Below, piece by piece: positions 6,001-8,402 of a DNA stretch of 8,402 nt. How positions within the stretch are numbered: position 1 is the stretch's first letter; every line of letters begins with the position of its first letter. The position numbers were made by a program. This DNA is from a virus (Duplodnaviria; Heunggongvirae; Uroviricota; Caudoviricetes). The stretch is taken from IMG/VR virus record IMGVR_UViG_2660238548_000022; one strand, given 5' to 3'.

Positions 6001-8402
6001 CCGCGCCATTGACCTTACAGAGCACTGGCTGAGGGTGGCGATAAAAATCATCGACCGCCACACACGGGAAGGATACGCGAAGGAGAATCCCGAACTGATA
6101 AGCGCATTCATGACCACAGCGGCGGCAAACTTTGCCACGCTGACAGAACGGGAGATTGCCGAAGCGGAACAGGTAACAACCATCAACGTTAAAAGCGCTG
6201 GAGAATAACCGAAGTAGTGAACACATAGCCGGAGCAATCCGGCTTTTTTTCGATCTCGCATATCTTAAAAAATGGTTGATTGATTATAATCTATCGAAAA
6301 TACTGATTATTAGATGATAAGCATCAGGAGGAAACAAAGTGGAAGAGATAAAGCAAAGCGCTACCGTGATGATTGATCACGAGATCCTAAACGAGCTTAA
6401 AAAACTTCAATTCGATGTTATTCGCCGGATGAATGAAGCTGGTATATACGGCAGAGCCGCCACGCCAACAATAGGTCATCTTGCACGTGTGCTGTTACGC
6501 GAAAGACTGGGCATTGCAACAGGTGAGGCATAACAAATGGCTATCACAGAACGCGAGGCAAGCATCATTAAGGCCATTGGCGAGGAAACAAGAGACACCA
6601 TAGCGCCATTGATGGAAAAGATCGCAGAGCTTGAGACACGAATAAACAAGCTGAGTAATGAAGTTGAAGGCCTGATCTCGTTACTCGGTGAGCAATGACA
6701 TGGGGGGGGAGTGTTCCGGCCGGAAAGTCGATCACCCTGGACACCGCCCCCCGTCTCATTCGTAGAAAATTTTGCTTTTCAAAAAAGTTACACGAAAAGT
6801 TACACCCCCTCAAAACGAGGTTTTTGCATGGCATTAACGACCAAAAAAAAGCGGTTTGCTGATGCGTTATCAAGGGGCGCAAATCCCACGGAAGCCGCTA
6901 TACATGCGGGATACAGCGAAAAGACCGCAAGGGTTAAAGGCTGGCAGCTATCCAACGATCCTGAGGTGAAAAAGTATCTTAAGGCTGTAACTTCTGATGT
7001 AACTTTTCAGGTTACAAAACCGAAAAAAGTTACAAAGAAAGTTACCGAAAAAGTTACACCGGAACGGGCATCAATTAACACCATTGAGATGATGGATAAC
7101 GGCCTACCCGACCCCATCAAAGCAATGGGCAGGATACTGATTGACAACATGGACACAGATCCAAAACTGGCTTTAGATGCCGCGTTTAAGCTGGCCCAGT
7201 TCACCCACCGCAAGATCGGCAGCATTGGGAAAAAAGAGGTTAAAAAACTCAATGCCGCTAGTGTCTACTCAAATCGGTTCCCCATCCCTAAGCCACCAAC
7301 AGACTTAAAACACTGAGGTAGCGAACTATGAGCGAATACATCACAGACCCTATTGATGTACTCACGGAAATCATGAACGACAAGCAGCAGTCGACCGAAA
7401 TACGGTTACAGGCCGCCGCTGTTCTGATGCCATATTTTCACGAAACACTAAACCCGTGCTTCCAGGAGGAGGAAGAAGATGATCTGTAAAAACATGAAAG
7501 GCGTGTCAGCAGTTCGCGCCGCCAGCGTGCTGGCATCGTGTAAATTTAGCCATGCTGACGCTATAGAGATGACGAAAAGAAATGATCCGGCAGTATCGAA
7601 ATTTCTTGAAAAATCCATCGTCAACAGAATGACTACGGATAACATGCCGTCGCTGGTGGCAGAGCCGATAGTAAGAGAGCTTGGCGAGTATATTTTTTCG
7701 CAGTCTGTACCAGGCAAGCTAATCAGCAGCGCGCTTAATCTTCCGTTTGGCGCAAAATTGCATTCAATATCAGGCAAGGGTAGTAAATGGCTTAAAGAAG
7801 CCGAAGAAATCCCTGTCAAAGAGGGAGAAGTAAACGAAAGTGCGCTAAAATTGTGCAAACTTGGCGCTATTGTGATGCTGAATAACGAGCTAATCAAATT
7901 TAGCACCCCTGGTACAAATTCAGCGATCAGAGACTTGATCACATCGGAATCGGTGAAAGAAATAGATAAAAAATTTCTTTCCAGTGATCAGGAGGTGGCT
8001 GGCGTATCCCCTGAGGGCGTGCTTAATGGTGCTGATGAGGCCGAAAACTTCATAGAGATTTTCAAAAAGCACATAGCGAACGGTAACACGCTTTCCACGT
8101 CGTCGCTAATATTGCCCGTAGAAAACGCCTTACAGCTTACTGATGCTGAGTTCTGGCAGATAGAGCTTTTGAGAATACCGGTAATTGTGAGCGAACAGGC
8201 GGATCGCATGATGCTGATAGACGCTCAAAAGCTGATTATTAACGTTGAAGCCACGGTTATAACCCCAACTGATGAGGCGGTAATAAAAACCGAATCAGGG
8301 GCGGTTAGCCTTTTCCAGAATGACGCTACAGCGTTCAGGGCAATCACCTATTGCGGATGGCAAAAACTCGATAAGGCCGTCACCGTTCTGGCGAAAAGCT
8401 GA

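Follow-up and report, generated by a model that had tools for sequence, protein, structure and literature searches.

Phased AAGTTAC repeats beside a cos core as a candidate TerS-binding element in an EHEC PICI-type satellite

Introduction

HTH-ring small terminases (TerS) can have their recognition elements in two separate blocks, with one block lying in terS itself, as in SPP1 (pacL/pacR) and P22 (pac). HK97 packages by an HNH-assisted cos mechanism with a 10-nt 3′ overhang, its TerS binding 15–29 bp downstream of the cut (PMC11331095). PhageTerm likewise assigned the Stx phage Lys8385Vzw to the cos type and called CGCCCCCCCT as its 3′ cohesive ends (PMC7946995). Among satellites, SaPIs encode a TerS homologue, TerS(S), that turns the helper TerL to satellite DNA (preprint 10.1101/2022.09.08.507074), and in EcCICFT073 the cosN is that of the helper but the cosB is not (PMC6092414). 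We analyse here a repeat array around the terS gene of an E. coli satellite; the open-access literature yielded no description of these repeats or of a cos-type satellite TerS.

Results

Gene content of the satellite

The window (the whole 8,402-nt stretch of DNA that was analysed) encodes an integrase, AlpA, a primase, TerS and a capsid homologue, as identified by Pfam matches. Int, alpA and primase modules followed by a terS/capsid homologue, all in one direction, are the content of a classical Gram-negative PICI, a category defined also by a size of ~9–10 kb and the lack of other virion or lysis genes; the satellite measures 9.4 kb. On this gene content we assign the window to the PICI-type satellites of EHEC. 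In the annotated locus (L001) yljB and clpS flank the element, which runs from int to the capsid homologue; the sequence beyond its ends contains nothing phage-like. Genes for HNH, TerL, portal, protease and head–tail connectors, the hallmarks of a cf-PICI, are absent from the window and from L001 with its flank; a cf-PICI identity, suggested by the O157 origin, was rejected on the lack of terL and portal in the annotated locus. Small tandem repeats of another kind are present at 5893–5986 (Tandem Repeats Finder), 3′ of the primase gene.

The satellite is carried by 220 of 5,426 complete E. coli genomes (~4%), the strains listed including O157:H7, O103:H2, O26:H11, O111:H8 and O121. Prophages with a matching cos core, Stx1 and Stx2 phages included, are found in 1,244 of the same 5,426 (~23%). 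Satellite and class-B prophages (class B being the GTTAAC region type of Stx phage) co-reside in one genome, for example NZ_CP031908.1, and on this co-residence class-B prophages may be candidate helpers.

The AAGTTAC array

AAGTTAC is strongly enriched: eight copies occur in the window against 0.83 expected, a number reached in 0 of 200 shuffles. Seven lie within 6785–7057, starting at 6785 and 6797 (+), 6987 and 6999 (−) and 7027, 7039 and 7051 (+); the eighth, at 3749 (−), stands alone. The original prediction of at least seven cores in about 280 bp, two upstream and three direct plus two inverted inside the ORF, is thus borne out, as is the repeated KVT peptide that it read from the internal copies, the translation containing KKVTKKVTEKVT. 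A longer unit, AAAGTTACA, has eight matches at up to one mismatch (2.28 expected), seven of them in the array region. Units are 9 bp long in a 12-bp phase, and Tandem Repeats Finder detects period 12 in both direct blocks; with the degenerate copy included, there are seven exact units and one degenerate unit (Table 1). Together the in-ORF copies encode AVTSDVTFQVTKPKKVTKKVTEKVT, the inverted pair covering the stretch of TerS where helix 4 ends and the linker begins. Inverted and direct copies also form a stable mRNA hairpin, which folds better than shuffles (z = −3.76).

Table 1 Features of the terS region in window coordinates.
Feature	Position	Strand	Remarks
G8 run, left conserved element of cos region	6702..6709	+	Conserved in related loci
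Conserved cos core GGACACCGCCCCCCGTCTCA	6739..6758	+	~30 nt before first repeat
Upstream direct pair, AAAAGTTACACG ×2, 12-nt period	6783..6805	+	~30 nt past predicted cut; 23 nt before terS ATG
terS, small terminase, 162 aa	6828..7316	+	PF03592, phrog_641
Inverted pair, TGTAACTT (6986, 6998)	6986..7006	−	Encode V54–T55 and V58–T59
Degenerate direct copy AGGTTAC	7009..7015	+	Encodes Q-V-T
Three direct copies, 12-nt phase, AAAAAAGTTACA / AAGAAAGTTACC / GAAAAAGTTACA	7023..7058	+	Encode KKVTKKVTEKVT in disordered linker
53-aa ORF after class-A terS	7328..7489	+	phrog_641 positions 89–125, E = 3.5e-7

TerS and the adjoining ORF

The small terminase matches Pfam PF03592 (Terminase_2) over residues 3–57 (E = 1.4e-10; 42.4 bits against a curated cut-off of 26.1) and phrog_641 over its full length (E = 1.5e-43). 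It is laid out as an HTH domain (1–56), a disordered linker (57–84) and a helical core (~96–126), with AlphaFold2 pLDDT of 81–89 at residues 1–50 and below 50 at 57–84; most in-gene repeat copies fall in this predicted linker. Searching its sequence against solved structures gave weak matches to the HTH domain alone (best E = 0.0011, Pam5 TerS) and no close structure. Relatives of this terS occupy HNH–TerS–TerL modules, and by this gene context the window copy probably belongs to that cos-packaging family, not to a headful (pac) one. Over residues 85–133, the TerS core shares 72% identity with its counterpart in the Stx-phage TerS, compared with 29% for class C; the former value is compatible with use of the Stx phage's TerL, and the same likeness might let satellite TerS poison, or co-assemble with, the helper TerS ring.

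The 53-aa ORF that follows resembles helices from the core of a different TerS class, sharing 38–44% identity with residues ~100–132 of class-C TerS; it may be part of the packaging-recognition system. Its homologues follow terS in L296, L086, L084, L293, L294 and L088, and are absent in L082 and L295.

A cos core upstream of the repeats

Directly ahead of the array lies a segment, 6745–6754 (CGCCCCCCGT), that is the counterpart of the Lys8385Vzw cohesive end (10 nt, 3′), matching it at 9 of 10 positions; the Lys8385Vzw record itself begins directly after this end. The cos-core pattern recurs in at least 120 IMG/VR contigs, with 31 different downstream sequences. The G-run, A-tract and core of the Lys8385Vzw module are all conserved in the window just 5′ of the repeats, and a run of 7–9 G precedes the core by ~35 nt in every related locus, satellite or phage. 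By homology, the satellite would be cleaved at 6745–6754, and the G8 run could be a cosQ-like or symmetry element. The upstream pair adjoins the predicted nicking site on its terS side, and in the alignment the first repeat of every TerS class stands at an equal position past the core.

Conservation and codon constraint

Class-A relatives were gathered one at a time, as contigs encoding TerS homologues, giving nine related loci (satellites and phages) with TerS down to 51% identical to that of the window. An IMG/VR scan with the TerS protein returned near-identical copies and distant matches, and no others. Scanning a contig collection with the TerS alignment gave mostly distant matches confined to the HTH domain, because the collection holds one genome per species, and no intermediate relatives; the exception was a group of Citrobacter/Entomohabitans loci, of another TerS class. 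All nine class-A loci, satellites and phages, carry the AAAGTTACA motif both upstream of terS and in linker codons. The upstream motif lies 30–70 nt before the annotated terS start, and one or more AAAGTTACAC copies occupy the corresponding site in 9 of 9; few copies occur elsewhere in the loci. Genes 5′ of the motif vary, and the sole HTH-domain protein encoded beside it in all nine is TerS.

The internal copies are constrained at the level of codons. Across seven lineages and ten motif columns, identical-codon pairs make up 91% in motif columns (V/T/K) against 50% in other conserved columns (31% for Val, 36% for Thr), and 7 of 10 motif columns are codon-invariant against 13 of 73 others (Fisher p = 0.0014). 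AAA GTT ACA of the direct copies is invariant across lineages, and the GTA ACT codons of the inverted copies are conserved in 5–7 of 7. These patterns suggest that the in-ORF repeats are under DNA-level selection. Copy content varies: direct copies number 1–3, changing by 12 nt, among the close relatives P0003, P0004 and L296; the L082/L295 lineage has no inverted copies, and L082 has additional upstream ones. The degenerate copy is also found in L082 (as CGGTTAC) and is missing from relatives with a shorter linker.

Pairing of repeat type with TerS type

Repeat and TerS types co-vary. A recognisable terS is present in 29 cos-core clusters; of these, AAGTTAC is found in 3 of 3 with a VKG[W/C]QL-type TerS and in 0 of 26 with other TerS types, which have GTTAAC or GTAAAC at the equivalent position beside the same cos core. 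L084 and L088, two further class-A loci whose core has diverged, likewise carry AAGTTAC. EHEC Stx-type prophages that share the core have GTTAAC where the satellite has GTTAC. The three motif classes, GTTAC, GTTAAC and GTAAAC, are one or two bases apart, and given so small a difference helper TerS may cross-recognise the satellite repeats. The earlier idea of a satellite-specific label holds in part: the array differs from the GTTAAC of the likely helpers, but the same motif and the same TerS type are also found in loci that look like prophages and encode a terL of their own (L084/L085, from Hafnia alvei, and L293).

Discussion

Recurrence of the motif, near-frozen codons, a location in the linker and repeat types paired with TerS types together make the array behave like a cosB specificity element. 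In the reading that we consider probable, a PICI-like satellite has a cos-type packaging site in which the repeats act as cosB, the element that TerS binds and that sets specificity. On induction of a resident HNH–TerS–TerL lambdoid prophage, the satellite would replicate as concatemers and make its own TerS, the HTH domains of the TerS ring binding AAAGTTACA units in two blocks, 6783–6805 and 6986–7058. Bound TerS would bring in two helper proteins, the large terminase and the HNH nuclease, and the shared core would be nicked at 6745–6754, leaving 10-nt 3′ cohesive ends; packaging would run rightwards through terS. Each TerS would mark only its own DNA, because, as we propose, helper TerS reads GTTAAC and satellite TerS GTTAC. 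More tentatively, and with rather less than even confidence, we suggest that this amounts to an undescribed route of piracy, in which a satellite keeps the helper's cos nicking core, cuttable by helper TerL/HNH, and adds an orthogonal TerS/cosB module. Sites could be accommodated in both orientations of the linker codons because GTTAC and GTAAC both read Val-Thr.

Several observations count against a cosB reading. The two blocks are ~190 bp apart, and a search found no IHF consensus between them; a 9.4-kb genome would need smaller capsids or packaging as multimers to fit the cos-to-cos headful of a 50–60 kb helper; the same copies also form the stable mRNA hairpin; and the codon comparison covers only seven lineages and ten columns.

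An unlikely alternative is that the repeats serve as operators and not, or not only, as a packaging signal; they would then be bound by a transcription factor or by a TerS that autoregulates a terS–capsid operon. Two copies do lie 23–45 nt 5′ of the terS ATG, the motif overlaps the terS start codon in class-C phages, and dual use is plausible. However, five copies lie 160–230 nt into the ORF, and a promoter scan found no sigma-70-like promoter in 6200–7400. The original prediction had set the upstream pair in a 'promoter region', a label that this result does not support; the pair sits instead just 3′ of the cos core. Late genes of lambdoid phages are transcribed by read-through, and the lambdoid equivalent of this stretch is the HNH–terS interval, which belongs to the late genes and is not expected to have a promoter of its own. 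The distance to the cos cut, moreover, is constant in all TerS classes, which points to packaging. The array had also been framed as pac-type, in which TerS would bind repeats in its own gene for headful packaging with an imprecise cut nearby (as in P22, SPP1 and pac-type SaPIs). In its favour, pac phages typically have TerS sites within the terS gene (P22 pac, SPP1 pacR), and five copies here lie within 6828–7316; PF03592 includes TerS of the SPP1/SF6 type, to which the nearest solved HTH domains also belong. Against it stand, as an indirect test, the HNH–TerS–TerL modules of the terS relatives, the defined 3′ cohesive ends of Lys8385Vzw in the same module family, and the cos core, G-run and A-tract conserved in the window directly 5′ of the repeats. 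We regard headful packaging as quite improbable; what survives of that proposal is that the repeats look like recognition sites for their own TerS, those of a cos module.

It is very improbable that the array is a by-product of slippage in a low-complexity 'KVT' protein linker, combined with a selected mRNA hairpin and with no DNA-binding role. Copy number does shift in 12-nt steps, and the RNA of the region folds better than shuffles, yet synonymous positions are near-frozen across lineages whose TerS is 51–65% identical to that of the window, and identical 9-mers recur in upstream non-coding DNA of every relative. L082, with no inverted copies and hence no hairpin, has extra upstream copies, and compensatory changes are absent, the sequence itself being preserved. 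That the repeats are iterons of a satellite replication origin seems scarcely credible: they are direct, phased and A-rich, but Gram-negative PICIs have their origin immediately downstream of the primase gene (PMC6092414), where the other tandem repeats of the window occur, and phages without this primase carry the same motif between HNH and terS.

If the repeats are indeed a private TerS label, this would explain how Shiga-toxin prophages could mobilise a 9-kb island that has no terL, and how the island could in turn interfere with them. It would further imply a compact specificity code for HTH-ring small terminases, with 1–2 base changes per 6–7 bp unit, and a portable packaging signal (~370 bp plus terS) for engineered transducing particles. 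The analysis also delineates the cos site of a packaging module that is very common among EHEC prophages; we found no description of the TerS-binding part of that module in the open-access literature searched.

Comparison with known systems

The closest parallel to a cosB element is in lambda, 21 and N15, where cosB/gpNu1 likewise pairs repeated elements for an HTH TerS with a nicking site, on its terS side. Lambda-family members have a common cosN and different cosB/TerS pairs (PMC4669245 and PMC6092414). Unlike these, the satellite has a PF03592 TerS in place of Nu1, a proposed HNH partner, predicted 10-nt 3′ overhangs, no IHF site that we could find, and 9-bp units in a 12-bp phase whose second block lies in terS linker codons. 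HK97 has the HNH-type cos packaging, 10-nt 3′ overhang and TerS site within tens of base pairs downstream of the cut that are proposed for the satellite; its TerS, however, has no HTH and a single 15-bp site, where the satellite has an HTH TerS and multiple phased repeats. SPP1 and P22 share the broad HTH-ring TerS type and the split blocks with one in terS, but are headful phages with no fixed cohesive ends, whereas the satellite array adjoins a conserved cos core for which a cohesive end has been published.

Among satellites, the cf-PICI EcCIEDL933 has the same host group, int–alpA–primase backbone and HNH-type cos packaging family; cf-PICIs carry their own genes for HNH, TerL, portal, protease and connectors, whereas the present element ends after a single capsid homologue. 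EcCICFT073 (through Rpp) and SaPIbov5, a cos SaPI, also exploit cos helpers, but have no terS, reprogramming the phage TerS via Rpp or copying the helper cos; the satellite has its own TerS. SaPIs with TerS(S) are pac/headful elements of Gram-positive hosts, and the satellite described here would be the cos/HNH version, with the helper's cut site kept and the TerS-binding repeats alone changed.

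The satellite and its terS repeats

At the annotated O157:H7 F8092B locus, where it is inserted between yljB/cspD and clpS, the element ends at the capsid homologue; genes for terL, portal, protease and HNH are all missing. This makes it a classical PICI-type satellite of ~9.4 kb rather than a capsid-forming PICI. Relative to this copy the window has 68 extra nt, at some point between the start of the integrase and 6500. The terS region (6500–7500) is at least 95% identical in 220/5426 complete genomes of E. coli; O157:H7, O103:H2, O26:H11, O111:H8 and O121 are among the strains listed. 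Immediately 3′ of the primase gene are small tandem repeats (period 8 at 5893–5912, period 18 at 5953–5986), a possible ori since Gram-negative PICI origins have been reported at that position (PMC6092414).

Features of the satellite window
Feature	Position	Strand	Detail
Integrase	1–1224		Pfam/PHROG searches
AlpA	2086–2310		Pfam/PHROG searches
D5_N/DUF5906 primase	3922–5670		Pfam/PHROG searches
AAGTTAC pair	6785, 6797	+	direct copies
terS, PF03592 small terminase	6828–7316		Pfam/PHROG searches; ATG at 6828, 162 aa
AAGTTAC pair	6987, 6999	−	inverted copies
AGGTTAC	7009		degenerate AAGTTAC copy
AAGTTAC triplet	7027, 7039, 7051	+	direct copies
53-aa ORF	7328–7489		Pfam/PHROG searches
HK97-fold capsid homologue	7479–8402		Pfam/PHROG searches

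AAGTTAC occurs eight times in the window against 0.83 expected, a count reached in 0/200 dinucleotide-preserving shuffles, and seven of the eight copies fall within 6785–7057. Spacing inside each block is exactly 12 nt (Tandem Repeats Finder gives period 12 at 6783–6805 and 7023–7058), and the true unit extends further, to AAAGTTACA. The original prediction of this array was right in copy number, orientations and in-gene peptide (...AVTSDVTFQVTKPKKVTKKVTEKVT...), but it had placed the upstream copies in a promoter region: a sigma-70 consensus scan of 6200–7400 gave zero sites, finding no promoter for the ORFs at 6339–6698 or for terS. A terminator-like hairpin with a T-run lies at 6227–6244, 3′ of the ORF at 5957–6208.

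A probable cos site precedes the repeats

All relatives share a block 5′ of the repeats, formed by a run of 7–9 G, ~35 nt of variable sequence and then (C/T)GGACACCGC(C/G)CCCC-TCTCA(C/T)GC..AGAAAAAAT. EHEC lambdoid prophages (including Stx1a/Stx2a/Stx2c phages, BP-4795, 2851, 1717, YYZ-2008 and PPompW) have this block too, located between HNH and terS; their TerS shares 46% identity with that of the window. The particle-derived Lys8385Vzw record starts exactly after ...CGCCCCCCCT, and its authors, using PhageTerm, classed the phage as cos-type, with CGCCCCCCCT as the 3′ cohesive end (PMC7946995). The window has CGCCCCCCGT at 6745–6754, inside the conserved core (6739–6758). Judged by this core and the published Lys8385Vzw end, the packaging module is of the cos type rather than the pac type suggested originally.

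Between the predicted cohesive end CGCCCCCCGT and that of the phage there is a single mismatch. The same G variant is present in one contig of the Stx-phage class (L230), and thus looks like tolerated natural variation of the overhang. In PPompW prophages the cos-region match begins at query position 16, with an IS110-family ISEc20 annotated under the match; insertion at the G-run edge might inactivate or alter packaging of these prophages.

Repeats co-vary with TerS type

A word-indexed protein search returned 13 TerS homologues (51–98% identity), in which the 'VT' positions are kept; elsewhere the linker is variable, its length shifting in 4-residue steps. Extending the DNA comparison to more distant relatives gave nine loci in all of the window's own TerS type (class A). 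The contexts of the more distant ones are HNH–TerS–capsid (L082, E. coli), HNH–TerS–TerL–protease/capsid (L084/L085, Hafnia alvei), TerS–49 aa–TerL (L293, a metagenome run) and a satellite-like TerS–50 aa–capsid homologue (L086/87, L088/89 and L294, from Salmonella and metagenome runs). Upstream genes vary from locus to locus; TerS is the sole HTH-domain protein found encoded beside the motif in all of them. AAAGTTACA(C) is present in 9/9, both 30–70 nt 5′ of the annotated terS start and in the linker codons, where seven have 1–2 inverted copies followed by 1–3 direct copies; the remaining 2–8 kb of each locus holds just 0–3 copies of the 6-mer. Inverted in-gene copies are lost from L082 and L295. 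L082 has five AAGTTAC copies over ~200 nt 5′ of terS (3800–4000), a head-to-head pair among them, as well as one class-B-like ATGTTAACA unit; its recognition region is organized differently and is possibly a hybrid.

Two satellite-like class-A modules (L086 4851–5993, Salmonella; L088 3986–5341, metagenome) lie a few kb from phage late genes, namely a protease–capsid fusion and a TerL nuclease domain. PMC10111431 describes helper-embedded satellites, and these modules may belong to that type.

A scan of IMG/VR with the cos core returned at least 120 contigs, which together with the other loci form 31 clusters by downstream sequence, 29 with a readable terS. Class A (3/3 clusters, plus L084 and L088 with a diverged core; ...TARVKG[W/C]QL...) has four to seven AAGTTAC copies, no GTAAAC, and GTTAAC in L082 only (2 copies). 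Class B, the Stx-phage type (L175 with 71 members, L230 and L249; VKGSQL), carries its five GTTAAC units in the stretch from cos to terS and has no VT linker. Class C (23 clusters; SKGSQL or SQGSRL) has GTGT(A/T)AAC-ATG-TTAACAG over the start codon and, in the linker codons, either GTTAACA or a GTTTACA...GTAAACA pair. AAGTTAC is absent from every class B and class C cluster. In an alignment of eight cos regions the first unit of each class takes an identical position after the core. The classes thus have a nicking site in common and a repeat specific to each, with some copies ~160–280 nt into terS, which is the pattern expected of a TerS recognition element.

Constraint within terS acts on DNA

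GTTAC reads Val-Thr in frame in either orientation, written as GTA ACT in the inverted copies and (AAA) GTT ACA in the direct ones. Across a codon alignment of seven independent lineages, identical-codon pairs make up 91% in motif V/T/K columns versus 50% in other conserved columns (Val 31%, Thr 36%), and 7/10 motif columns are codon-invariant versus 13/73 of the others (Fisher p=0.0014). With motif codons near-frozen, in-gene conservation is thus at the DNA rather than the protein level. An AlphaFold2 model built on a 14-sequence alignment predicts a confident four-helix N-terminal domain (residues 1–56; pLDDT 81–89 over 1–50), a linker of pLDDT <50 (57–84) and a helical core (~96–126). The direct copies (residues 66–77) lie inside the predicted disordered linker and the inverted copies (54–59) at its edge, and close relatives have one or two 12-nt units deleted; the constraint is sited where the protein tolerates repeats.

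Packaging model and alternative readings

In the model we propose, phased AAAGTTACA units would be bound by a ring of satellite TerS, in one block beside the cut site and a second within terS. The ring would recruit helper TerL and HNH to nick at 6745–6754, with packaging running rightwards. Helper TerS would read GTTAAC and pass over satellite DNA, as satellite TerS would pass over helper DNA. From class to class the motif changes by just one or two bases; the repeat blocks are ~190 bp apart, with no IHF site found between them. The Ccm of SaPIbov5 resizes heads. For a 9.4-kb genome in cos-to-cos packaging, the capsid homologue may likewise resize heads; alternatively, the packaged DNA may be multimeric.

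The cos core and the defined 3′ cohesive ends of Lys8385Vzw speak against a headful pac site. An operator could be a second function of the repeats, although the sigma-70 scan lends it no promoter support. Neither slippage nor a peptide repeat nor an RNA hairpin (the region folds with z=−3.76) accounts for synonymous sites being frozen, for identical copies in non-coding DNA, or for L082 having lost the inverted copies while carrying extra ones upstream. The location of the motif and its phage contexts make origin iterons unlikely.

Candidate helper and accessory genes

Full-length class-A terS occurs in complete E. coli genomes only as this satellite (220 genomes), other matches being partial, to the cos core or HTH codons; INPHARED phage records hold no TerS more than 47% identical to it. 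The class-B cos/terS region is found in 1244/5426 complete E. coli genomes, in up to seven places per genome, and can share a genome with the satellite (for example, NZ_CP031908.1). Satellite and class-B TerS are 61% identical in the HTH domain, with unrelated linkers. The satellite oligomerization core (residues 85–133; window 7080–7226) is 72% identical to class B and 29% to class C, compatible with the protein working with class-B TerL or co-assembling with class-B TerS; given this identity, mixed rings with helper TerS, or competition against it, are possible.

The capsid homologue (307 aa) is under half the length of the 645-aa protease–capsid fusions adjoining related terS genes, shares 24% identity with the capsid portion of the one from Hafnia (L084) and is kept beside terS in L082, L086, L088, L294 and L296. 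Like Ccm, it is a candidate redirector of capsid size. The 53-aa ORF matches TerS-family core helices (phrog_641 positions 89–125, E=3.5e-7) and is 38–44% identical to residues ~100–132 of class-C TerS. Homologues lie 3′ of class-A terS in satellite-like and prophage-like loci (L296, L086, L084, L293, L294 and L088); L082 and L295 have none after terS. The ORF may encode a TerS fragment that lacks the HTH and serves as an adaptor or interference protein.

Comparison with known systems

TerS-binding repeats beside cosN, TerS sites inside terS, and satellites with their own TerS (pac-type SaPIs) are all established. Also known are PICIs in which the cosN is the helper's but the cosB is not (Rpp system; PMC6092414). 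In the open-access literature we found no account of a cos/HNH-type satellite keeping the helper nicking core with its own TerS and matching repeats, of the TerS-binding part of the widespread EHEC prophage cos site, or of a disordered linker whose Val-Thr codons spell out the site in both orientations. The first repeat unit lies ~30 nt after the predicted cut; in HK97, likewise a cos phage that uses HNH and has 10-nt 3′ overhangs, TerS binds 15–29 bp after the cut (PMC11331095). The shared core with class-specific repeats is paralleled by the cosB–Nu1 pairs of lambda, 21 and N15.
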